From Gemmatimonadota bacterium (GTDB lineage Bacteria > Gemmatimonadota > Gemmatimonadetes > Palauibacterales > Palauibacteraceae): 64,000 nt of DNA. The position numbers and the translations under genes were made by a program. Location: positions 5,815 through 69,814 of the forward strand of contig JBDGYE010000007.1 of the NCBI GenBank assembly GCA_039584255.1, given 5' to 3'. The notes under the pieces were generated by a model. The model was given only the letters and a program-made list of their open reading frames with translations. It was not told the origin of the DNA and did not search any database. Shown piece by piece: positions 22,009 through 33,149 of the stretch. The number at the start of each line of letters is the position of its first letter. Positions within the stretch are counted from its first letter, which is position 1.

Positions 22009-22728
22009 ATGTGCCTGGGCGAAGACGAGATCCACCTCTGGGCCGCTTCTCTCTGCCTGTCCGCGGGCGTGGCGGAGGAGTTGCTCGGCGTCCTTTCGGC
22101 GGACGAGAGGGACCGCATCCGTCGCCTGCGCGTGGACCGTCAGCGTAGACGGGCGGCGGCAAGCCGGGGGCTGCTGCGATACCTTCTGGCCTCCTATACG
22201 GACACGACACCGGACCATCTTCGCTTCGAATACGGCGCAAAGGGCAAACCGGCTCTGGCCGGTCCGACACCGAACGGGTCTCTTCACTTCAGCCTCGCGC
22301 ATTCGGCGGATCTCCTCCTCGTCGGAATCGCCCGGGGACATGGCATCGGGGTCGACATCGAGCTCATGCGCCCGCTCTCGAACGTCGATCGCCTGGCGGC
22401 ACGATGCCTCTCTTCGACAGAGCGGGCCCTGTTCCGGCGAGTCCCGAGCGCGCAGAGGAGCCAGGCTTTCCTGGTCTGCTGGACGAGGAAGGAGGCATTC
22501 GCCAAGGCCATCGGCCAGGGGCTCGCCCTGCGCCCACGGCGTATAGAAGTGACGCCTCCACCCGAGCTTCCGGCCCGACTGCTGGCCGTGGACGGCGACC
22601 GGGGCAAGGCAGCGGGGTGGGAGCTATTCCACCTGGAGCCGGAGCCCGCTCACGTGGGGGCGCTCGCCGCCAGAAAGAGCGAACGGCGGATCGGGGCCTG
22701 GAACCTGGACCCGGAGATGCTCCTGTGA
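22009..22728 (+). CDS. Sfp-type 4'-phosphopantetheinyl transferase
   Basis: GAKGKPAL, FSLAHSADLLLVG, GIGVDIE and CWTRKEAFAKAIG motifs. Start uncertain (ATG at 22009, or 21898/21853). Confidence 0.8.
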   Translation: MCLGEDEIHLWAASLCLSAGVAEELLGVLSADERDRIRRLRVDRQRRRAAASRGLLRYLLASYTDTTPDHLRFEYGAKGKPALAGPTPNGSLHFSLAHSADLLLVGIARGHGIGVDIELMRPLSNVDRLAARCLSSTERALFRRVPSAQRSQAFLVCWTRKEAFAKAIGQGLALRPRRIEVTPPPELPARLLAVDGDRGKAAGWELFHLEPEPAHVGALAARKSERRIGAWNLDPEMLL

Positions 22729-24413
22729 CGGTCGTCCGAAGCGAGGTCCGGCCGGGAGTCTACCACGATTCGATCGTGCTCATGCAGCTCCAGGTCTCCC
22801 TGATGGATCTTCCCGGCGTGCTGGACGCCGGGGCCGTGATGGGGAGCCCGGAGAACCTGCAGATCCTGGAGGCGAACGAGCTCCTGCCCGAAACGCTCTC
22901 GGGAGTCCGGGCGGGTGACCTGGTGGTGGCGGTCAAGGCCGAGAGCGAAGACGACGCCGCGAGAGCGCTGCGAAGCGTGGAAGCGCTGCTCGTGCGGGGC
23001 GGTTCGGAGGTGAACGAGGACTTTCGCCCGCGCAGCCTGTCGTCTGCGGCCCGCTTGTCGCCCGGGGCCGGGTGGGTGCTGGTCTCCGTGCCAGGGCGAT
23101 ATGCCGCGGGAGTGGCGAGAGAGGCCCTCGAGCTCGGACGCCACGTCTTCCTCTACAGCGACAACGTCCCCATAGCGCAGGAGGTAGTCCTCAAGGCAGA
23201 GGCCCGTTCTCGCGGCCTGCTGGTAATGGGGCCCGACTGCGGCACCGCGATCATCAACGGCGTCGGCTTCGGCTTCGCGAACCGTGTGAGGAGAGGCGCC
23301 GTCGGACTGGTCGGGGCGGCCGGCACCGGGCTGCAGGCCGTCACGGCGGGCATCCACGCCAGGGGAGCGGGCGTCTCGCAGGCGATCGGAACCGGTGGTC
23401 GTGACCTGCAGGCCGAGGTCGGCGGCGTGACCGCGCTCCAGGGCCTCGACCTGTTGGCACGGGATCCGGAAACCCGAGTGATCGTGCTCGTCTCCAAGCC
23501 GCCGGAGCCCGCCGTCGTCGGACGCCTGCTGGCAGCGGCACAGCGAACGGGAAAGCCGGTGGTCGTGAACCTGCTCGGTTATGCGCCGCCAGCGCCCAGA
23601 TTGGGGTCCCTTCACTTTGCCGCCAGCCTCGGCGAGGCGGCCCGGCTGGCGGCAGAACTTCTTCGCGAGGAGCCGGAGAGCCGGTCTCCCGCGTCGGGAC
23701 ACCGTGCAGAGGCACGGGACTTCGGCTATCTGCGGGGACTGTTCTCCGGCGGTACGCTTGCCCTGGAGGTGCTTCAGGGGCTCCGGGCCTTTCTCGAGCC
23801 TTTGCACTCCAACATGTCGATCGACGACGTTCTGCTGCTCGCGGACCCGAGCCAGAGCGAGGCGCACTCGATTCTCGACCTGGGGGCAGACGAGTTCACG
23901 GTAGGGCGGCCGCATCCCATGATCGACAACGACCTTCGTCTGCGACGCATTCGTCAGGAGGCCGCCGACCCGGAGGTCGGGCTCATCCTGCTCGACGTGG
24001 TGCTGGGCGACGGCGCCCATCCCGATCCTGCGAGCGAGCTGGCACCGGCCATCGAGGCGGCTCGTGCGGTACGGGACGTCGAGTTCGCCGCGATCGTCGT
24101 CGGCACGGAGGAGGACCCGCAGGACCTCGGCGAGCAGGTGGAAAGCCTGGCGCGCGCGGGCGCGCGGGTCTTCCGTGACACGGCAGAGGCGCTGGAGGAC
24201 CTCGCGCGCCGCCGGCCGCGGCAGCCGGGCGTGGAGCCTCCCCCGGTTCCGCTGGATGCCTTCCAGTCTCCGGTCTCGGCGATCAACGTCGGAGTGGAGT
24301 CCTTCTTCGACAGCATCGTCGACCAGGGAGCGGACGCGCTGCATGTGGACTGGCGCCCGCCGGCCGGAGGCAACGAGAGGCTGATGGAGATCCTGAGCAA
24401 GATGGGGAGGTAG
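22725..24413 (+). CDS. fdrA: FdrA-family protein (succinyl-CoA-synthetase-alpha-like, acyl-CoA synthetase FdrA)
   Basis: N-terminus VRPGVYHDSIVLMQLQ...VMGSPENL, then the CoA-ligase-like GPDCGTAIINGVGFGFAN and GTGGRD. GTG start overlaps the PPTase TGA (GTGA at 22725-22728). Confidence 0.75.
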   Translation: MTVVRSEVRPGVYHDSIVLMQLQVSLMDLPGVLDAGAVMGSPENLQILEANELLPETLSGVRAGDLVVAVKAESEDDAARALRSVEALLVRGGSEVNEDFRPRSLSSAARLSPGAGWVLVSVPGRYAAGVAREALELGRHVFLYSDNVPIAQEVVLKAEARSRGLLVMGPDCGTAIINGVGFGFANRVRRGAVGLVGAAGTGLQAVTAGIHARGAGVSQAIGTGGRDLQAEVGGVTALQGLDLLARDPETRVIVLVSKPPEPAVVGRLLAAAQRTGKPVVVNLLGYAPPAPRLGSLHFAASLGEAARLAAELLREEPESRSPASGHRAEARDFGYLRGLFSGGTLALEVLQGLRAFLEPLHSNMSIDDVLLLADPSQSEAHSILDLGADEFTVGRPHPMIDNDLRLRRIRQEAADPEVGLILLDVVLGDGAHPDPASELAPAIEAARAVRDVEFAAIVVGTEEDPQDLGEQVESLARAGARVFRDTAEALEDLARRRPRQPGVEPPPVPLDAFQSPVSAINVGVESFFDSIVDQGADALHVDWRPPAGGNERLMEILSKMGR

Positions 24414-24417
24414 TCAG

Positions 24418-25659
24418 GTGGATATAGCGCACGCCAATCGGACGGCCGTCGAGAGGATGGCCTCGGCACGGCCGATCCTCAAGACGGTCTCCACAGCCCG
24501 CGAAGTCATACCGGGCATGAGGGACAACCTTCTCCTGCACGCCGGGCCTCCGATCGAGTGGGATCGCATGTCGGGGCCTCTCCGTGGGGCCGCGGTCGGA
24601 GCGCTCCTGTTCGAGGGCCTGGCCGCGGACGAGGCCGAGGCGACGGCACTGTCCGAGAGCGGCTCTGTGGAGTTCGCGCCCTGCCACCACCATCAGGCGG
24701 TCGGCCCCATGGCCGGTGTCATCTCCGCGTCGATGGCCGTGTACGTGCTCGAGGACGCCACTCACGGCACCAGCTCGTACTCGAACCTCAACGAGGGGTA
24801 CGGGAAGGTCCTGCGATACGGGGCCTACAGTACGGACGTCCTGGACAAGCTGCGATGGATGAACGAGGTAATGGCCCCCCTGCTCGCCGACGCGCTGGCC
24901 GGGAGTGAAGGGATCGACCTCAGGGCGCTGCTAGCGGAGGCCCTGCACATGGGCGACGAGGGACACAACCGTAACAAGGCGGGCTCGCTCCTGTACCTGA
25001 AGGCGCTGTCGCCGTTGATCGCCGGGGTGGCCGCCGACTCGTCGGTCGAGGCAGAGGTGCTGGCGTTCCTCGGCGACAATGCCCTCAGCGTCCTTAATCC
25101 GGTGATGGCCGCTTGTAAGGCGATGGCGGACGCCGCCCACGGCGTCGAAGGCAGCACGCTGGTGACCGCCATGGCTCGCAACGGTACTGACTTCGGGATC
25201 CGGGTGAGCGGGCTGGGCGACGACTGGTTCACCGCTCCGGCCGAGGTGCCCGACGGGCTCTACTTCACCGGCTTCACCAGCGCCGACGCCAACGCGGACA
25301 TCGGCGACAGCACGATCACGGAGACGGCCGGAATCGGCGGCTTTGCCATGGCCGCGGCGCCCGCCATCGTCACCTTCGTCAGCGGCACCCCGAGAGACGC
25401 GCTGAACGCCAGCCTCGAGATGTACGAGATCACGACGACCGAGCATCCGCACTTCACCATTCCGGCCTTCGACTTCCGCGGAACCCCCACCGGTGTAGAC
25501 ATCCGGAAGGTGGTCGAGCTGGGAATCACTCCGCGGATCAACACGGGCATTGCGCACCGCGAAGCCGGCGTCGGGCAGGTGGGGGCCGGACTGGTTCGCC
25601 CTCCGATGGAGATCTTCGAGAAGGCATTGCTCGCGTACGCGGACCGGTACGGGCTGTAG
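24418..25659 (+). CDS. DUF1116 (YlbE-like) protein
   Basis: LLHAGPPIEWDRMSGPLRGA...APCHHHQAVGPMAGV pattern of the YlbE/DUF1116 family that normally follows fdrA. GTG start 7 nt after a GGGGAGG RBS. Confidence 0.7.
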   Translation: MDIAHANRTAVERMASARPILKTVSTAREVIPGMRDNLLLHAGPPIEWDRMSGPLRGAAVGALLFEGLAADEAEATALSESGSVEFAPCHHHQAVGPMAGVISASMAVYVLEDATHGTSSYSNLNEGYGKVLRYGAYSTDVLDKLRWMNEVMAPLLADALAGSEGIDLRALLAEALHMGDEGHNRNKAGSLLYLKALSPLIAGVAADSSVEAEVLAFLGDNALSVLNPVMAACKAMADAAHGVEGSTLVTAMARNGTDFGIRVSGLGDDWFTAPAEVPDGLYFTGFTSADANADIGDSTITETAGIGGFAMAAAPAIVTFVSGTPRDALNASLEMYEITTTEHPHFTIPAFDFRGTPTGVDIRKVVELGITPRINTGIAHREAGVGQVGAGLVRPPMEIFEKALLAYADRYGL

Positions 25660-25819: not shown

Positions 25820-26959
25820 ATGACCGACGGGATGCGGCCGGTTCGAGAGCGGCGGATGCGTCGTCCTCCGTTGACTCACCTACGCTCCGTGCTCGCCGCG
25901 CTCGCCATCTGCTCGACCGTCACGCCGGGCCGGGCTCAAGCGCCGGCGCCACCCGCGGACTGGACCTGCGTGCCCCCGGATTCGGTCGGAGTCGAAATCG
26001 AGCGGATCGCCCGGCGCGTAGGCGGAGACATCGGGCTATCGGCGATTCACGTCGAGACGGGTGCGCGCATCTCCCTGAACGGAGACCGCCGCTTCCCGAT
26101 GGCCAGCGTATCGAAGGTCCCCATGGCTCTCGAGTTCCTCAGACGCGTCGACGCCGGTGAGATCGATCTCAAGGACAGGCTGGTTCTCCCAATAACCGAC
26201 TTCCGGGCCGGCCACAGTCCGCTCGCGAGCTGGTCGGGGGGCCGCCCCGTCACCGCCACGCTGGACAGCCTGCTGTGGCTGACGATAGGGATCTCAGACA
26301 ACACGGCCACTGACGTGATCCTGCAGTTGGCGGGGGGGCCGGAGTCGGTGACGCGCCGCCTTCGCGAGCTCGGGATCGAGGCGATCGACGTGGACAGGTC
26401 CGAGGCGCGAACCTTCGCCGACCTTTCGGGGATTCCCAACACCGTACCGGAAAGCGACCTCTACAGGTACTCCTACTTCCGCATACGCGATGCCCTTCCG
26501 CCCGAGCACAGGCGGGAGGCGCGGCTTCGGTTCGGGAACGACCCCCGAGACACAGCAACGCCGGACGCCATGGCCCAGTTGCTGGCTGAGCTTCACCTGA
26601 GGGGAGCTGGCCTCACGCCCGAATCGAGGGAGCGCCTGCTGGACTACATGACCAGAAGCAGGTCGGGTCCGCGGCGGCTCAAGGGGCTGCTCCCTCGCGG
26701 GACGCCGGTCGCCCACAAGACGGGCACCCTGGCCGGGGCGATCAACGACGTTGGAATCATCACGCTGCCGAGCGGCGCCGGCCATCTGGCCGTCGCCGTC
26801 TTCGTCAACACCCTGCAACGGACGACCTGGCGACGCGAGAGGACCATCGCCCAGGTCTCGCGCCTTCTCCACAACTCCTTCACGTCGGCAGCGGACCCCG
26901 GGGCGGTTGAGCTCCTGGCCGGGACCTGCGCGCAACAGGGAGACTCGGCCTCCGACTGA
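25820..26959 (+). CDS. Class-A beta-lactamase-like serine hydrolase with insertion and C-terminal extension
   Basis: SVSK (SxxK), SDN and KTG motifs in the correct order. Signal peptide. GGGAGG RBS 10 nt before the ATG at 25820. About 40 extra residues between the RSE (Glu166-like) position and KTG. Confidence 0.7.
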   Translation: MTDGMRPVRERRMRRPPLTHLRSVLAALAICSTVTPGRAQAPAPPADWTCVPPDSVGVEIERIARRVGGDIGLSAIHVETGARISLNGDRRFPMASVSKVPMALEFLRRVDAGEIDLKDRLVLPITDFRAGHSPLASWSGGRPVTATLDSLLWLTIGISDNTATDVILQLAGGPESVTRRLRELGIEAIDVDRSEARTFADLSGIPNTVPESDLYRYSYFRIRDALPPEHRREARLRFGNDPRDTATPDAMAQLLAELHLRGAGLTPESRERLLDYMTRSRSGPRRLKGLLPRGTPVAHKTGTLAGAINDVGIITLPSGAGHLAVAVFVNTLQRTTWRRERTIAQVSRLLHNSFTSAADPGAVELLAGTCAQQGDSASD

Positions 26960-26994
26960 GGCACGCCTGGCGGAAAGTCCCGGGATTCGGGCCT

Positions 26995-27018
26995 GCAGAG
27001 GTGTTCTGCCGTTTTTTT
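26995..27018 (+). terminator. Putative Rho-independent terminator after the beta-lactamase-like gene
   Basis: GCAGA-GGTGT-TCTGC stem followed by CG plus a T7 run. The stem is short. Confidence 0.45.
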
Positions 27019-27318
27019 CCTCGCCGTGACGCCTCGTGCACGATCGGCAGATAAGTTCACCGTTCAGGGCAACTTTCCGCTACAGGTACCGCGAAAGGAA
27101 GAGCCCCGAATCCGGCCGCTGCCGCTGGAGCGCCGCGTTGGACGCCGGACTAACATTCTTCCCTCGAATCTGCTGGATTCATGGGGCCTCCCGCTGTATC
27201 GAGTCGGCTTCCGGGACCGCCTGATCGCCGGGTACGCCGAACATGGCGGGAGTGCACTGCCCGAAAGGGCTGTCTGTGGAACGCCACTTGCTGCTGTTGG
27301 GCGTCGTTCAGGCCGTAC

Positions 27319-27340
27319 GAAGTGGCGGATCCGCCACTTC
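27319..27340. promoter_or_regulatory. Perfect 22-bp palindrome upstream of the giant gene
   Basis: GAAGTGGCGGATCCGCCACTTC. It ends 33 nt before the ATG at 27374. Confidence 0.4.
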
Positions 27341-27373
27341 CGAAGACGTGAAACCTGCTGGCCGCGACGCGAG

Positions 27374-30300
27374 ATGGCAGACGAAGCAGGACTGAGACAG
27401 CTCAGCCTGGAAGGGGCTCAGGCTTCTGACGGGGTGGCCGAGCGCTTCCACATGAGAGCGCCTCGGCCCCTGGTCGGCAGCATCCTCTGGACACCCGTCT
27501 CGCCCGACGCACCCGCCGAGGTGGAGGGCGCGTACGATGTCTTCATCACGCAGAGGGCCCTGGGCGACCTGCTCGATCACCTCGCGACGGCTCCTTCCGG
27601 CGAACGGCCATTCGGTCTTCTGTCCGGGGACCTTTGTGAGGACCTCGATGTCGGAGCCCGCTACGTGATCATCAGCGGCGTTTGCCGCTCTTCCGTCCCC
27701 CTCTCGGACGATCCTGGCGATCAGATACTGCCGAAAGCCTGGGAGGCGCTTCGGCGCCTTGCGGCAGGGATGCAGGGTAACCTGGTCGGGTGGTACCTGC
27801 GCAGCACGAAAGGTCAGCTGGAGCTCTCCGGAGACGAGCTGCTCTCGCACGAGAAGTACTTCAGCGAGCCGTGGCACAGTGCCATCATCGTCTCGGCCGA
27901 CCGGGATGAGCCTGGAGGCGGATTCCTGCGGCGAACCTCGCGCGGGTTCTCACCATCCGAGGCGCTGCCCTTCTACGAGGTCGTGACGTCTCGGGCGCTC
28001 AGCAAGGGAGAAAAGCGGACCCTGCTCGACTGGAGGAACGTCCAGACCGCGGACTCGGTCGTCCCCGGTCAGCTCGCTCCCGAGACCAGCAAGCGCGTCA
28101 TGCGGGCGGCGGAGCGCTCACAGATCGGGAGCGGAGCGGAGGTCGCGGATGCGACCGCCGATGGTCCTACCGATGGGTCCGCGCTGAGTGTTCCCTCCGT
28201 GACAGGTGCGCCTGGCGTCTTCGCCGAGGAGGTCGCTAGACGCTCTATCCTGGCCGCTGCCGCGAAGACAGCGGCAGAGATGGCAGAGAGGCGCGAACGG
28301 GCCGAGGCGGCGGCACGCGAGGCGGAAGAAGAAGCGGCCCGGCGAGCCGAAGAGCTGCAAGCGGCCCGAACCGCAGCGGAGGAAGCGGCCCGCAAGGCAG
28401 CCGAAGAGGCGGCCGAGAGAGAAGAAGCCGAGGCCGCCGTCGAGCGACGCCAGGCGGAAGACCTCGCCCGGCAGGCGGAAGAGGCCGCTCGAGTCGCCGA
28501 CGAGGAAGCTGCGCGTAGAGCCGTGGCCCTGACCTCTGCCCAGGAGGCTGCCGATAACGCAGAGAGCAGGGCGAACGAGCTTGAAACCGCCCTGAGGGCG
28601 ACGGAAGCAGATGCGGCCCGGCGTGTGGCAGAGGAGAACGCGGCGCGTGTGGCGGCCGAACAGGAGGCCGCCCGTCGCGCGGAGGAGGTGGCACTGGCAA
28701 AGGCGGCCGAGGAGGAAGCGGAGAGGAGGGCCGCCGAGCTGGAGGCGACATTGAAGGCCGCCGAAGAGGCGAGGAAGGAGGCCGAAGAGGAGGCCATGCG
28801 GCGGGCCGCCCAAGCCGAGGCGGCACGGAGGGCGGCCGAGGAGGAGGCGGCGCGACAAGCGGCCGAGCTCGAAGCCACCCTCGAGGCAGCCGAAGCGGCA
28901 CGGAAGGAGGCCGAGGAGGAGGCGAATCGGAAGGCCGCGGAGGCTCAGGCGGCGCGGAAGGCGGCGGAAGAGGAAGCCGCCCAGCGAGCGGCTGAGCTGG
29001 AAGCCACCCTCGAGGCTGCCGAGGCCGCCAGGAAATCCGCCGAGGAGGAGGCTGCTCAGCGAGCCGCGGAAGCCCAGGCCGCCCGGAAGGCGGCGGAAGA
29101 AAAAGCTGCCCAGCGAGCGGCTGAGCTGGAAGCCACCCTGGAGGCGACCGATGCCGGTAGAAAGGCCGCCGAGGAGGAGGCAGCTCGGAGGGCCACCGAG
29201 CTCGAGGCCGCCCGGAAGGCCGCCGAGGCGGAAGCCGAGCGGCAAGCCGCGGAGCTGAAGGCCACCCTCGAGGCTGCCGACGCCGCTCGCCGGGCCGCCG
29301 AGAAGAAGGCCGAGCGGCAGGCCGCGGAGCTCGAGGCCGCTCGGAAGGCCGCCGAGGCGGAAGCCGAGCGGCAGGCCGCGGAGCTTCAGGCCACCCTGGA
29401 GGCTGCCGATGCCGCCCGCCGGGCCGCCGAGGAGAAGGCAACCCGCAGGTCCGAGGAGCTCGAGGCCGCCCGGAAGGCCGCCGAGGAGGAGGCCGAGCGG
29501 CAGGCCGCGGAGCTCCAGTCCACTCTCGAGGCAGCGGAGTCCGCTAGACGAGAGGCAGAGGCGGAGGCGGCCCGCCGGACCGAGGAGCTCGAGGCCGCCC
29601 GGAAGGCCGCCGAGGAGGAGGCCGAGCGGCGAGCCGCGGAGGCGGAAGCGGCGATCCAGGCGGTAGAACAGGAGGCCGCGCGACAGTCAGCGGAAGCCGA
29701 GGCCGCTCGCACCGCCGCCGAGGAGGAAGCCGCGCGCCGCCGCGAGGAGGCGGAAGCACACAAGGCCGCCAAGGAAGAAGCCGTTCGTCGAATGGCGGAG
29801 CTCGAGTCCGCTCGAAAGAAAGCCGAAGAAGAAGCGTTGCGGTGGGCCGCGGAAGCCGAGGCCGCCCGGAGCGCCGCCGAGGAGGAAACGGCCCGCATGG
29901 CGGCCGAGCTCGAGGAGACGCGAGAGGCGGCTGCCACAGCTCGGCAGGTGGCGGAACAGGAGGCCGCCCGGCGTTCCGCAGAGGTGGAAGCGGCCAAAAG
30001 GGTGGCGGAGGAATCCGAACGGCGGGCACGGGATGCGGAAACCGCTCGTCGATCCGCCGAGGCCGAGGCCGAGACACGCAGGTCGGAGGAAGCCGCCCGC
30101 AGAGCGGCCGAGGCAGCCGCTCTCGAGAAGGCGGCCGAGCTGGAGGCCGCCCGCGAAGCAGCCCAAGATGAGGCCGAACGGCGAGCTGCCGAGGCCGAAT
30201 CAGCGCGCAGGGAGGCCGAAGAGGAGGCCAAGCAGCGAAAAGCAGAGGCCGCCGCGCGAAAGGCCGCCGAGAAGGAGGCCGCGCGTAGAGCCGATGAGCT

Positions 30301-31864
30301 GACGGAGGCCCGAAAGCTAGTGGAAAAGGAGGCCACGCGGCGGACGGAGGAGGCGGAGGTCGCCCTGAAGGCGGCGAAGCGGGAGGCGGGACGGCGGAAG
30401 AAGGAGGAGGAAGCCCGCAAGGCTGCAGAGAAGGAGGCCGCCCGGAGGGCCTCGGAGCTCGAGAAGGCCAGAGCGGCAGCGGAGGAAGAGGCTGCCCGCA
30501 AGGCGGACGAGGCCGAGGCTGCCCTCGAGGCCGCGCGAATGGAGGCCGAGCGGCGTGAAGCCGCCGAGCGCGAAGCTGCGGACCGGAGCTCCGAACTGGA
30601 GGAAGCTCAGAAGGCGGCCGAGGAAGCCGTTCGGCAGGCAACCGAGAAGCGGGCTGCGCAGCAGGCGATCCAGCAGGAGGCCGACCGGCGGACGGCCGAG
30701 GAGGAAGCAACCCTCAACGCGGCCGAGCAGAAGGTCTCTCACAAGGCTGCCGAGCTGGAGGCTGCACGGGAGGCTGCTGAGGAAAAGGTCGCCCAGATGG
30801 CGGCGGAGGCGGAAGCGGCCAGGGAGTCGGCCCGCCTCGAGGCGGAGCGCCGCGAGCAGGCGGAGGCGGCGGCCGCGGCGAGGGTCGACGAGCTGGAGCG
30901 CGCCCGGCAGGCCGCCGAGCAGGAGGCCGCGCGCATGGCCGCGCGCGCCCAGAAGGTGGCGGAGGTGGCGCGCCAGGAGCTGACCCGTCTCAGAGTGGAG
31001 CGAAAGGCGCTGGAGGAGGGCGCGGCACGCAGGATCGCGGCGATCGATGCCGAGCGCCGTGCAGCCGAGCGAGAGGCTGTGCGGCGGAGGGACGAGGAGG
31101 TGACCCGCGAAGCGTCGTCTGACGCGGCCCGGCAGGCGGAGGAGGAGGCGGAGCGAAGGGCTGCCCGAGAAGCAGCCTTCCGCCGGGCGGAGGAAGCGGT
31201 CACGAGAAGGGCGGAGCAGGACTCCCTACGTCTGGCAGCCGAGGCCGCTGCGCCCAGGGATCAGGAGCGAGAGGCGGAACGGGATGCCGCCCCGGCAGCC
31301 GCAGAACAGCCACCGCACAGGAAGTGGAGAAAGAGGCTGAGCCAGGCCGGTAACATCGCGGCCAGCATCGGGATCATCTCGATCGCCGCTGTCGGCGCCG
31401 AGAGGATCGTAGGCTCATCCGACCCGCGCATCGAAGAGGCTGTGCAGACTCTTCCGCCGGCAGTCACCGGAGACGACGAGGCGATTCCGCAGGCGCCCGG
31501 GGCAATCGAGCTGCCACCCCTAGCGGGAATCCAGCAAGTGCCGGGCTCCGGAGAGCTGTCGGTCGTACCTCCGAGCACCGACCCAGACGTGAAGGCGCTG
31601 GACTCCTGGGCGGGTTCGCTCGCCAGCGTAATTCAGGCGTTCCAGGAGGCCGCGGCGAGGCATGGCGCCGGCACCACGGCCTGTTCCGACCTCCAGGCGG
31701 CGTTCATCCTCGTGGATGAGACCTGGCTCGACTACAACGTCGACGGGATCTCAAAGGTCGTTGAAGACCTCGACCCCGAGCGGATGGACCGTCACGAGAG
31801 CCTGTCCAAAGACGTCCGCCAGGTCGAGCTCTCGCTGACTGCGTCGGGCTGCGAGAGACCCTGA
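27374..31864 (+). CDS. Giant (about 1496 aa) protein: degenerate MPN/JAB-like domain + about 1000-aa Ala/Glu/Arg/Lys helical repeat + TM helix + C-terminal domain
   Basis: MPN-like pattern FITQRAL...ERPFGLLSG...YVIISGV...LVGWYLRSTKGQLELSGDELLSHEKYF...AIIVS, where the expected HxH reads LRS. Uninterrupted AEEEAARRAAELEA-type sequence from about 28250 to 31300. TM AGNIAASIGIISIAAVGA (about 31348-31405). Start chosen at MADEAG; the upstream part of track ORF 27026.. is lower-GC and non-protein-like. Confidence 0.75.
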   Translation: MADEAGLRQLSLEGAQASDGVAERFHMRAPRPLVGSILWTPVSPDAPAEVEGAYDVFITQRALGDLLDHLATAPSGERPFGLLSGDLCEDLDVGARYVIISGVCRSSVPLSDDPGDQILPKAWEALRRLAAGMQGNLVGWYLRSTKGQLELSGDELLSHEKYFSEPWHSAIIVSADRDEPGGGFLRRTSRGFSPSEALPFYEVVTSRALSKGEKRTLLDWRNVQTADSVVPGQLAPETSKRVMRAAERSQIGSGAEVADATADGPTDGSALSVPSVTGAPGVFAEEVARRSILAAAAKTAAEMAERRERAEAAAREAEEEAARRAEELQAARTAAEEAARKAAEEAAEREEAEAAVERRQAEDLARQAEEAARVADEEAARRAVALTSAQEAADNAESRANELETALRATEADAARRVAEENAARVAAEQEAARRAEEVALAKAAEEEAERRAAELEATLKAAEEARKEAEEEAMRRAAQAEAARRAAEEEAARQAAELEATLEAAEAARKEAEEEANRKAAEAQAARKAAEEEAAQRAAELEATLEAAEAARKSAEEEAAQRAAEAQAARKAAEEKAAQRAAELEATLEATDAGRKAAEEEAARRATELEAARKAAEAEAERQAAELKATLEAADAARRAAEKKAERQAAELEAARKAAEAEAERQAAELQATLEAADAARRAAEEKATRRSEELEAARKAAEEEAERQAAELQSTLEAAESARREAEAEAARRTEELEAARKAAEEEAERRAAEAEAAIQAVEQEAARQSAEAEAARTAAEEEAARRREEAEAHKAAKEEAVRRMAELESARKKAEEEALRWAAEAEAARSAAEEETARMAAELEETREAAATARQVAEQEAARRSAEVEAAKRVAEESERRARDAETARRSAEAEAETRRSEEAARRAAEAAALEKAAELEAAREAAQDEAERRAAEAESARREAEEEAKQRKAEAAARKAAEKEAARRADELTEARKLVEKEATRRTEEAEVALKAAKREAGRRKKEEEARKAAEKEAARRASELEKARAAAEEEAARKADEAEAALEAARMEAERREAAEREAADRSSELEEAQKAAEEAVRQATEKRAAQQAIQQEADRRTAEEEATLNAAEQKVSHKAAELEAAREAAEEKVAQMAAEAEAARESARLEAERREQAEAAAAARVDELERARQAAEQEAARMAARAQKVAEVARQELTRLRVERKALEEGAARRIAAIDAERRAAEREAVRRRDEEVTREASSDAARQAEEEAERRAAREAAFRRAEEAVTRRAEQDSLRLAAEAAAPRDQEREAERDAAPAAAEQPPHRKWRKRLSQAGNIAASIGIISIAAVGAERIVGSSDPRIEEAVQTLPPAVTGDDEAIPQAPGAIELPPLAGIQQVPGSGELSVVPPSTDPDVKALDSWAGSLASVIQAFQEAAARHGAGTTACSDLQAAFILVDETWLDYNVDGISKVVEDLDPERMDRHESLSKDVRQVELSLTASGCERP
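28730..29633 (+). repeat. Seven tandem 129-bp (43-codon) coding repeats inside the giant gene
   Basis: Unit starts at about 28730, 28859, 28988, 29117, 29246, 29375 and 29504 (AAELEATLEAAEAARKEAEEEA..RKAAEAQAARKAAEEEAAQR and derived 25+18-aa subunits). Confidence 0.85.
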
Positions 31865-31878
31865 GGTCGCAGCGCCTC

Positions 31879-32406
31879 TCAAGGCGCGGGCGAGTGCTCG
31901 GAAGCCCGCCACTCGGTGGCCGGCTTGCTGTCGTAGATCACTTCCTCGTAGCCGTCGGCGACCGACCTCGCGGCGGCCAGGCAGTCTCGATCGCCGGCCA
32001 GCTCCACCGCGAAGCCCATCTCCGCCATCGTCCTCGAGTACTTGAAGCTACCGGTCTTCCCGCGGACGGCGTTGTGCGTACTGTCGACCGCCGCTGCCAA
32101 CTCCTCGGGGGTCTCGGCGCCGCACCGAGCGGACAGGCTCTCGAACAGGACGCGGTATTGCTCGACATCGGCGTTCGCTACCACTGACCTGCCGGCATCC
32201 TCAGCCGCCATGCGCGCGGCGAATGGCGCGTCCGAAGCCACGTAGAACCTGTCCTCCGGCCTCGGCAGCCCAGGCTCGCGAGGCTCGGGCCATGCTCGCA
32301 CGAGAACCCAGCCAAAGACGGCGGCCAGCGCCAGCCCGGCCGCTAGACGAGACAGTTCGGCGCGTCGCCACGCCGGGTCGTCGGGCATCGAAGTCCAGGT
32401 CATCAC
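31879..32406 (-). CDS. Hypothetical membrane-anchored protein (175 aa)
   Basis: One N-terminal hydrophobic helix (LAAGLALAAVFGWVLV). Convergent with the giant gene. No family recognised. Confidence 0.5.
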   Translation of the reverse strand: MMTWTSMPDDPAWRRAELSRLAAGLALAAVFGWVLVRAWPEPREPGLPRPEDRFYVASDAPFAARMAAEDAGRSVVANADVEQYRVLFESLSARCGAETPEELAAAVDSTHNAVRGKTGSFKYSRTMAEMGFAVELAGDRDCLAAARSVADGYEEVIYDSKPATEWRASEHSPAP

Positions 32407-32543
32407 AACCGAAGTATACGTTGGGCCAGCGGAGGCGCCGCAGGCTCCTGGCGTACCTACGGTCGGCTATTCAGCCAGTCCGGGATCTTCCCGCTGCGGT
32501 CTGCAGGCAGACGAAGGGAACGGGGGTCGTTTCGGAGTGAGGC

Positions 32544-33062
32544 TTACCTCGTTCCGTCGAAGGCCAGCCGCTCGAAACCCTCGGGTATGGCCGAGAGAAG
32601 GCGCAGCGGAACCGATCCCAGCTGGAGCCGCTCGTCCCCCCAGGAACCAGCCATGCCTACCAACAAGCCGGAGGCTCGAAACTCGAGGAACGACTCTACG
32701 GAACCACTCGCTCCGACGCTGCCGGCGAAGACGATGGCGGACGGATCGATCAACCAGTGTTCCGCAATGCGAGATCCGCCCGCTGCTATTCCCGTTATGC
32801 AGGCCCGATCGGCCGAGATCGTGCCATCCACCCTGGAACCGTTCTGAACGAGGATCTCGATCTGACCCGCGCAGACTGCGGCAGAATCCACTGTAGCGCC
32901 GTCGGCGGCCAGGAGCTCCAGCCTCCACCTACCGAGATACGTGCCTTGGACGTCCGGCGGAGGTGGCGGAGACAGCGGTCCCGATGCCTCCTGACGACCG
33001 CCTTCGCCTCCGCACGCCACCGAAGCCGCCGACAGCAGAACCGCGAACAACTTCCGAACCAT
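32544..33062 (-). CDS. Hypothetical lipoprotein (172 aa)
   Basis: MVRKLFAVLLSAASVAC lipobox. Start is the ATG at 33062 with a GGAGA upstream. Confidence 0.55.
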   Translation of the reverse strand: MVRKLFAVLLSAASVACGGEGGRQEASGPLSPPPPPDVQGTYLGRWRLELLAADGATVDSAAVCAGQIEILVQNGSRVDGTISADRACITGIAAGGSRIAEHWLIDPSAIVFAGSVGASGSVESFLEFRASGLLVGMAGSWGDERLQLGSVPLRLLSAIPEGFERLAFDGTR

Positions 33063-33149
33063 CTCGTCTCCGCGTGGCGGAGTCACGCCTGACGCCAGGC
33101 CCCAGCCGGCGACAGGAAACGCTGGCCGCCAGGTCTAGTCAATACAGAG

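Follow-up and report, generated by a model that had tools for sequence, protein, structure and literature searches.

A zinc-less MPN domain at the end of a predicted ~1,000-residue helical rod in a membrane-anchored protein of Gemmatimonadota

An unusually long open reading frame (ORF) was characterized in a 64,000-nt stretch of DNA from a Gemmatimonadota bacterium (assembly GCA_039584255.1, contig JBDGYE010000007.1, positions 5,815 to 69,814 of the forward strand). The whole of this stretch is referred to below as the window, and coordinates are given in its own numbering. The coding sequence (27374-31864, plus strand) specifies 1,496 amino acids (aa) plus a stop codon, as defined by the ORF listing, the N-termini of orthologues, and codon-position divergence. 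A globular head of the MPN/JAB fold, a very long rod rich in Ala, Glu, and Arg, one transmembrane (TM) helix, and a small C-terminal tail follow one another in this single frame, which confirms the giant gene of the original prediction, a reading made from the letters alone. The head has lost its zinc ligands, the rod is most likely a single alpha-helix (SAH), and the gene is, by sequence comparison, a derived paralogue at the extreme end of a large, unannotated family of membrane-anchored JAB proteins. The architecture is a striking oddity that has been conserved; the function set out below is proposed as a best guess.

The head comprises residues 25-225 (27446-28048, plus strand) and carries N- and C-terminal extensions that are specific to the family. 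Its assignment draws on alignments, on Pfam matches of homologues, on a profile compared with PDB sequences, and on structure prediction by AlphaFold followed by Foldseek. Pfam JAB (PF01398) matched 24 of the 28 aligned heads of close homologues, and Prok-JAB matched 5. Among the 80 wider relatives scanned, 60 were matched by JAB (best E 5e-20), with no other Pfam domain recurring, and two family members exceeded the JAB gathering score. A profile built from the 28 heads retrieved Rpn11 (7e-7), PSMD14, BRCC36, a Caldiarchaeum Rpn11-like protein, AMSH-LP, and CSN5 from the PDB sequences. The AlphaFold head model, computed with 14 sequences, placed core residues 52-190 at a predicted local distance difference test score (pLDDT) of 70-89, and the 50 best matches that Foldseek retrieved with it from the PDB were all MPN proteins. 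This list is headed by the KIAA0157 chains, MPN-minus components of the BRCC36 complex (E 8e-8), with BRCC36, CSN5, Rpn11, and the Caldiarchaeum Rpn11 homologue next. The MPN/JAB character originally proposed for the head was thus borne out by the Pfam matches of homologues, the profile match to Rpn11, and the predicted structure. The head of the window protein also keeps the remaining conserved surface motifs of the family, PFGLLxGDLCED, THxKYFxEPW, and LPFYEVV...DW. It is joined to the rod by a linker (residues 226-280; 28049-28213, plus strand) that is poorly conserved across orthologues (identity ~0.10, many gaps) and modeled at pLDDT <50.

The zinc site of this domain is degenerate. Residues 137-155 of the window protein read LVGWYLRSTKGQLELSGDE, in which the GWY...SGDE portion, encoded at 27788-27838 (plus strand), corresponds to the JAMM motif in the form GWY-LRS-TKGQLEL-SGDE, with L-R-S in place of H-x-H and E in place of the zinc-binding Asp. 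In the alignment with Rpn11, the family pattern GWY-x-x-x falls on GWY-H-S-H, and S/T-x-x-D falls on S-S-V-D; the window protein reads L-R-S and S-G-D-E at these positions. Both zinc-ligand His residues are therefore absent, the Asp ligand is replaced by Glu, and the JAMM/MPN+ motif E-x(n)-H-x-H-x7-S-x2-D is lacking. The full zinc motif was found in none of the 17 complete long-rod proteins. About half of the long-clade members still have the second His and the rest do not, a pattern that looks like decay once the first ligand had gone. Judged from sequence and model, the head is an MPN domain without a zinc site, that is, an MPN-minus pseudo-enzyme. The original prediction had already drawn this conclusion from the L-R-S; the Glu at the position of the zinc-binding Asp adds to it.

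The rod (residues 281-1293, 1,013 aa; 28214-31252, plus strand) is free of Pro and is predicted, from its composition, periodicity, and positional conservation, to form an SAH of the ER/K type. It consists of 35% Ala, 25% Glu, 15% Arg, and 5% Lys. When the protein was divided into 100-residue blocks, a globular start was followed, at residues ~300-1300, by blocks with 26-42% Ala, 21-29% Glu, and 9-23% Arg. Four Gly residues lie within the rod (at position 281, its first residue, and at 595, 1006, and 1216); the ~1015 residues without Pro or Gly that had been described at the outset thus stand as 1,013 residues without Pro only. Non-Ala hydrophobic residues make up 8% of the window rod and 8-12% across the set formed by the window protein and 16 complete orthologues (the 17 proteins, below). 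In none of the 17 proteins did normalised Fourier power at 3.5, 3.6, or 3.67 residues rise above noise (0-4), for hydrophobic residues or for Ala plus hydrophobic residues, and the 3.5- or 3.67-residue periodicity of hydrophobic positions that marks a canonical coiled coil is accordingly absent. A non-helical period of ~4.3 residues gave a power of 9-19, and was the strongest period for Ala in 16 of the 17 proteins (3.54 in L012); the charge repeat in the window rod recurs every 8.5 residues. Pairs of opposite charge occur in the 17 proteins at 1.8-2.0 times the expected frequency at i±4 and at ~1.6 times at i±3, and are depleted to 0.5-0.7 times at i±1, i±2, and i±7. Because heptad periodicity is absent and opposite charges are enriched at i±4, the rod is read as an ER/K-type SAH rather than a coiled coil, most likely one continuous helix stabilized by salt bridges. 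The ER/K single-helix composition noted in the original prediction is therefore supported by periodicity and charge spacing in all 17 proteins. If helical throughout, the rod would have a contour length of ~150 nm (1,013 residues at 0.15 nm).

Established ER/K SAH domains (such as those of myosins, INCENP, caldesmon, and CAF-1) resemble the rod in being highly charged and poor in Pro and Gly, with opposite charges at i±3/4 and no hydrophobic seam. The rod differs from them in its Ala content of ~35%, its ~1,000 residues, its net charge of ~-71, and its occurrence in a membrane-tethered bacterial protein, so that the sequence hallmarks of the class are present in an atypical composition. Such an Ala content recalls the designed (EAAAK/R)n helices. 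SAH domains serve as spacers between domains (PMC5378345, PMC5347031); they average ~75 residues, and the longest examples in myosins reach ~200 (PMC5378345).

Seven tandem units of 129 bp, or 43 aa, lie within the rod (28700-29602, plus strand), with a degenerate eighth unit besides, as established by Tandem Repeats Finder (TRF), unit identity matrices, and the gap profile. At 28700-29649, TRF detected 7.4 copies of a 129-bp period, with 79% matches. The seven in-register units are not near-identical, as had been proposed: they share 65-86% identity in protein and 67-87% in DNA, so that the original description was overstated. Gaps between orthologues cluster at residues ~450-650, which is the repeat zone, and the count of recently similar units varies between species. 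The length-variable locus that had been anticipated is thus seen as variation between species, concentrated in the repeat region.

The length of the rod is otherwise conserved (825-1,148 residues across the long clade), in species with heads of no more than 53-61% identity, and residues 726-1275 align nearly gap-free across orthologues at 53-62% identity. Rod alignments scored 1,175-1,526, compared with ~480-790 for shuffled or reversed controls (a 2-2.7-fold difference), which were still 36-46% identical owing to composition. By these alignments, the rod is no free-running low-complexity spacer. A search of the PDB sequences with 300 rod residues returned no match. Conservation beyond composition is also what would be expected if the rod were a dimeric or higher-order coiled coil or a filament, in a membrane-anchored cytoskeletal or scaffold protein whose MPN head serves assembly or partner binding. 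The 43-residue unit, equal to ~12 helical turns at 3.58 residues per turn, is compatible with mixed heptad/hendecad repeats, and the best Foldseek matches of the head are MPN proteins that pair through C-terminal helices. Against this stand the lack of a 3.5-, 3.6-, or 3.67-residue periodicity in any of the 17 proteins, the scarcity of non-Ala hydrophobic residues, and a net charge that would oppose parallel self-association. On these three grounds the coiled-coil interpretation was set aside as unlikely, although it is the strongest of the rivals considered.

The rod is followed by the basic flank HRKWRKRL (residues 1315-1322; 31316-31339, plus strand) and by a single TM helix (residues ~1325-1347; 31346-31414, plus strand), which was located by a hydropathy scan and is present in every complete family member. 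Every orthologue has a similar basic cluster next to the TM helix, on the side of the rod, and the window protein has no N-terminal hydrophobic segment and no signal peptide. An N-in/C-out topology is predicted since the flank obeys the positive-inside rule, a signal peptide is lacking, and invariant Cys residues occur only in the tail. We infer that the protein is bitopic in the inner membrane, its head, rod, and basic flank lying on the cytoplasmic side and its tail in the periplasm. The original prediction had entertained a cytoplasmic head or the reverse; the basic flank, the lack of a signal peptide, and the tail Cys all fit the former.

The tail extends for ~150 aa beyond the TM helix. 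It begins with a Pro-rich and poorly conserved periplasmic linker (residues ~1348-1404; 31415-31585, plus strand), recognized by composition and low conservation, and its last ~92 residues are conserved throughout the family. This conserved part (31586-31861, plus strand) forms a C-terminal three-helix bundle that ends in SGCERP and contains the invariant Cys1437 and Cys1493, as judged from alignments and the AlphaFold model. A 19-sequence alignment of the tail shows no variation at two Cys, one Arg, and the terminal Pro. In the model (mean pLDDT 91) the helices span residues 1404-1431, 1437-1465, and 1468-1491, with one Cys opening helix 2 and the other immediately behind helix 3. It is plausible that a Cys1437-Cys1493 disulfide staples the bundle. 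Foldseek on the predicted tail returned generic helical bundles only, none significant in the PDB (best E 0.56), and a tail-only profile search matched Gemmatimonadota fragments alone, none of which carried a Pfam domain. The same search with ~80 rod residues included gave nothing, probably swamped by low-complexity candidates. The tail bundle thus appears to be novel, with no known relative. The basic stretch, the one TM helix, and the two-Cys C-terminal domain were all as first described.

Among 1.84 billion representative proteins, a profile of the head alone matched 2,783 clusters at E <= 1e-3, the weakest of which probably include unrelated JAB proteins, 526 at E <= 1e-10, and 109 at E <= 1e-30. 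The best 150 matches are mostly proteins of 400-700 aa with GWYH[ST]HP...S..D, one TM helix, and ...SGCPRP or a close variant at the end. Layout was tabulated for 90 complete representatives and 32 locus-derived proteins. In the 90 representatives, a linker rich in Pro, Ala, and Glu separates the head from the TM helix by a median of 138 residues (interquartile range 86-210, maximum 524), and 59 retain the full H-x-H-x7-S/T-x2-D motif; in the clade of the window protein, the linker consists of 825-1,148 residues of Ala, Glu, and Arg, and full motifs number zero. The zinc-ligand His, His, and Asp are kept in 70, 67, and 79 of 80 family representatives, respectively. The window protein shares the family layout in all its parts: the P-x-P..RSI.W.P extension, TH..F.EPW, the linker, one TM helix, and the two-Cys bundle ending G-C-x-R-P. 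What is newly recognized is therefore a family defined by JAB head, linker, TM helix, and '...SGCPRP' bundle, within which the clade of the window protein has lost its zinc ligands and expanded its linker. The original prediction did not recognize the domain combination as a described family, and literature searches on membrane-anchored bacterial JAMM or Gemmatimonadota MPN proteins found nothing relevant; the combination is, however, not unique to the window gene.

Related genes were also sought in genomes, one per species, and 44 loci were found, 42 of which are labeled Gemmatimonadota or uncultured bacterium. The bin of the other two (L040 and L043) is labeled Akkermansiaceae; these contigs are probably mis-binned, because their neighbours cluster with those of Gemmatimonadota loci. 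A neighbour protein of one canonical family member likewise clusters at 90% identity with Gemmatimonadetes/Gemmatimonadales proteins, and the identifiable members, those whose origin is checkable, appear to belong to Gemmatimonadota. The genes fall into three groups. Heads of the long clade are 49-59% identical to that of the window protein, and its complete copies measure 1,216-1,549 aa. Heads of the short paralogue clade are 38-43% identical (51% in the intermediate L025), in proteins of ~600-680 aa; all of them read GWYHRH-x7-[ST]-x-x-D, and their linker is usually acidic and Pro-containing. The third group consists of two Gemmatimonadaceae genes (466-507 aa) that are more distantly related. 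Long and short copies occur together in 11 genomes.

Three intermediates bear on the order of events. One family member (P0031) combines a 244-residue A/E-rich linker with an intact HRH; another (L025:3404-5203) has a ~100-residue AEK helix and an intact motif; and in a third (L001:8968-10699, P0006), whose head is the most similar to that of the window protein, an intact HRH precedes a long rod of >300 residues that is cut by the contig end. Since A/E-rich linkers coexist with intact HRH...S-x-x-D in these proteins, rod growth probably came before, or was independent of, the loss of the zinc site.

The closest parallels are the MPN-minus subunits of eukaryotes, which pair with MPN-plus enzymes (KIAA0157/Abraxas with BRCC36, Rpn8 with Rpn11, and CSN6 with CSN5). 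Like the window protein, they have an MPN fold without zinc ligands and a helix after the domain; these pairs are the best structural matches, and they likewise have a paralogue with intact H-x-H...S/T-x-x-D in the same genomes. Unlike them, the window protein comes from a bacterium, is anchored in the membrane, and has a periplasmic domain and a ~1,000-residue helix free of heptads. No ubiquitin-like, E1, or E2 genes were seen near its gene, and a pairing with the short paralogue is proposed by analogy. The domain is homologous to that of the JAMM/MPN+ enzymes (PF01398, Prok-JAB PF14464; Rpn11, AMSH, and archaeal and bacterial JAMMs), from which the window protein departs in having L-R-S where they have H-x-H, and E where they have the Asp ligand, and the family in having a canonical Glu that is shifted or variable. 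HvJAMM1, DRJAMM, and operon-encoded JAB proteins have been described without membrane anchors, unlike the present family. A place in anti-phage defence of the CBASS Cap3-like kind is not suggested: PADLOC gave no match for the head, the tail, a group B head, or P0067, and the neighbours are housekeeping genes.

Other long spacers offer looser comparisons. Like the window protein, TolA and TonB each have one TM helix, a small terminal domain, and a long extended spacer, which is an A/E/K helix in the former and Pro-rich in the latter. In the window protein, however, the TM helix is near the C-terminus, the long helix is predicted to be cytoplasmic, and ExbBD/TolQR neighbours are lacking. A TolA-like identity was rejected, as no TolA or TonB model in Pfam or NCBIfam matched at E <= 1, the TM helix is C-terminal, and the basic flank lies on the rod side; the resemblance to TolA domain II pointed out originally is thus an analogy. 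Golgins, the tail-anchored long rod tethers of eukaryotes, also hold a binding domain at a distance. In 'Periscope proteins' (PMC8201768), stalk proteins of variable length on bacterial surfaces, a repetitive rod sets the distance of a binding domain, as in the window protein, where rod length differs between species by the number of tandem units; the rod of the window protein is, however, an intracellular helix with diverged repeats, whereas theirs consists of folded domains arrayed outside the cell.

The interpretation we favor, with a probability of roughly 45%, is that the window protein is a bitopic pseudo-enzyme on a single-helix rod, a derived paralogue that acts as a non-catalytic long-reach tether. 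A cytoplasmic, zinc-less MPN head would be joined to the inner membrane by a helix of ~1,000 residues, and would bind, without cleaving it, the ligand of the family or a partner far from the membrane. In doing so it might cooperate with the short catalytic paralogue of the same genomes, much as eukaryotic MPN-minus subunits do with MPN-plus enzymes. It would have originated by duplication from a membrane-anchored JAB enzyme with a linker of ~140 residues and H-x-H...S-x-x-D. A stronger version, in which a genuine ~1,000-residue single helix is a cytoplasmic ruler selected for its length, of up to ~150 nm, and the head captures partners for, or pairs with, the short paralogue, is possible and considerably less likely.

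Several observations weigh against the tether. The window protein, whole or as isolated head and tail, has no Pfam or NCBIfam match at E <= 1. No short copy was found in 15 of the 26 genomes with a long copy, a count limited by incompleteness of the metagenome-assembled genomes (MAGs) and by the pattern-based search. Only 20 of the 80 family representatives have the canonical general-base Glu, which is expected three residues ahead of the G in G-x-L-x-G; more of them (50 of 80) have a Glu eight positions past the first Gly (L-C-E-C/D-P). Because the general base is not conserved, the 'intact' members, and so the paralogue, are putative enzymes, and the family may use an atypical catalytic mechanism. 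With 35% Ala, the rod does not follow the textbook ER/K motif, and monomeric helicity over 1,000 residues is without precedent next to the ~200 residues of the longest myosin SAHs (PMC5378345). The positional conservation of the rod beyond composition would also suit a specific assembly or binding surface instead of a passive spacer. Among the loci examined, the long clade has no conserved operon partner and no hint of a ligand. No experiment has been reported on any family member, the sources giving 'hypothetical protein' apart from one 'TonB' label.

If the tether model is right, its implications reach beyond this gene. MPN-minus organizers of MPN-plus isopeptidases are regarded as a eukaryotic theme, represented by the proteasome lid, the COP9 signalosome, and BRISC. 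The window protein would be a bacterial, membrane-bound counterpart of this MPN+/MPN- division of labor, and the pair of zinc-less and zinc-keeping membrane-anchored paralogues would provide a simple system for how such pairs arise. The rod, which would be ~5 times longer than the longest myosin example (PMC5378345), would offer a natural test of the length limit of single alpha-helices, and of helices as cellular rulers. The analysis also exposes a large unannotated family, with hundreds of clusters at 50% identity and a tail for which there is no Pfam model, in a phylum with few experimental handles.

The layout of periplasmic domain, one TM helix, and cytoplasmic effector domain is conserved throughout the family and resembles that of a sensor. 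The protein could accordingly be a transmembrane signaling or sequestration device, in which the periplasmic bundle senses and the MPN head holds or releases a regulator, in an anti-sigma-like or BlaR1-like manner. In the window and in four other loci, a minority, the gene directly upstream encodes a class A beta-lactamase, and no sigma factor or repressor gene was a conserved neighbour in the loci examined. A conformational signal would have to cross one TM helix and then travel the 1,000 residues of a single helix, which is implausible, and the head of the window protein appears catalytically dead. We regard such a device as doubtful, somewhat more so than the coiled-coil assembly.

The start and integrity of the gene were assessed separately. 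An uninterrupted frame spans 27026-31864 (plus strand), and the ATG at 27374 lies inside it. This ATG is the likely start, because 13 database homologues and genome-derived orthologues begin at the aligned position (MADEN/MATE/MSDET), and because a terminator-like hairpin, GCAGAGGTGTTCTGC (26995-27009), lies upstream. Together with a T-run, this element (26995-27018, plus strand; a consensus match only) follows the upstream class A beta-lactamase gene. Its position directly before the GTG at 27026 counts against reading the long 1,612-aa ORF, and would imply that the 27374-31864 gene is transcribed on its own. No promoter was found by a scan near the gene, and Rfam gave no match over 26500-32600. 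Divergence between the window and 16 orthologues at codon positions 1, 2, and 3 was ~0.26, 0.25, and 0.57 in the rod and 0.31, 0.22, and 0.55 in the head; this shared pattern indicates that the plus frame is coding and under purifying selection. The other plus frames and the minus strand are also open across 28069-31203, with many ORFs of 250-400 aa that are Ala/Ser-rich or Pro/Arg-rich, as would be expected from runs of GCN, GAG, and CGN codons; codon-position divergence favors the main plus frame only.

A single ORF with the common head-rod-TM-tail layout was found in 16 of 17 complete orthologues, all from independent MAGs. The exception (L013/L045; L045:11100-11400, in MFD03551.bin.2.55, apparently a long-read MAG) is called as proteins of 415 and 1,017 aa. 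Three-frame reading revealed at least two frame changes within ~250 bp, with the downstream part intact up to ...TGCPVP, so that the split is probably a sequencing error rather than real. An exact look-up of the window protein, with three alternative starts, returned no record in the public collections searched, and an exact 40-mer from the head matched no metagenome contig. The notion that there is no real single gene here, only a GC-rich repeat assembly artefact, a fused or pseudogenised ORF, or a chance low-complexity frame, could appeal to the open alternative frames, the split copy, and the missing database record, but it is very improbable and largely refuted by the uninterrupted ORF in 16 independent MAGs, by third-position divergence in the rod at twice that of positions 1 and 2, by the clustering of the frame changes, which is typical of long-read errors, and by repeat units that differ by 13-33% in DNA and are thus resolvable by short reads. 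Of the three findings that could have overturned the original prediction, namely a head unrelated to MPN domains, an artefactual repeat region, and orthologues split into separate genes, none emerged.

Around the rod gene, the window contains, in order, an FdrA-like CoA-ligase protein, AllG, the class A beta-lactamase, the rod gene, a convergent 175-aa gene, a 180-aa gene, and a Na:Ala symporter. The convergent gene (31879-32406, minus strand) encodes one hydrophobic segment and has no Pfam or NCBIfam match; its conservation as a neighbour had been singled out for checking, and it adjoins no orthologue. The 180-aa protein (32544-33086, minus strand) has a lipoprotein-like N-terminus, and neither a family match nor a match in related loci. 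The beta-lactamase gene is upstream in the window and in four orthologue loci, and the Na:Ala symporter is downstream in three loci; both were rejected as operon partners, since this pattern looks like local synteny.

The setting of the short paralogue is more constant: upstream of it lie ZnuA/ABC transporter genes and, divergently oriented, a gene for an outer-membrane beta-barrel. A Peptidase_S58 gene (DmpA-like, 'D-aminopeptidase') abuts or overlaps its stop codon in at least nine loci (for example, L047:5828-6937 and L048:8389-9498), and is also present just downstream of the match in L025-L037. Its position makes this gene a possible operon partner for the catalytic members of the family. 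Two canonical family members share another, different gene setting. Further upstream in the window, at 22404-25659, the FdrA-like CoA-ligase-domain protein carries a long N-terminal extension rich in Arg, Gly, and Pro, and its gene is followed by that for AllG (oxamate carbamoyltransferase subunit); the two form a purine/allantoin catabolism pair unrelated to the rod gene.

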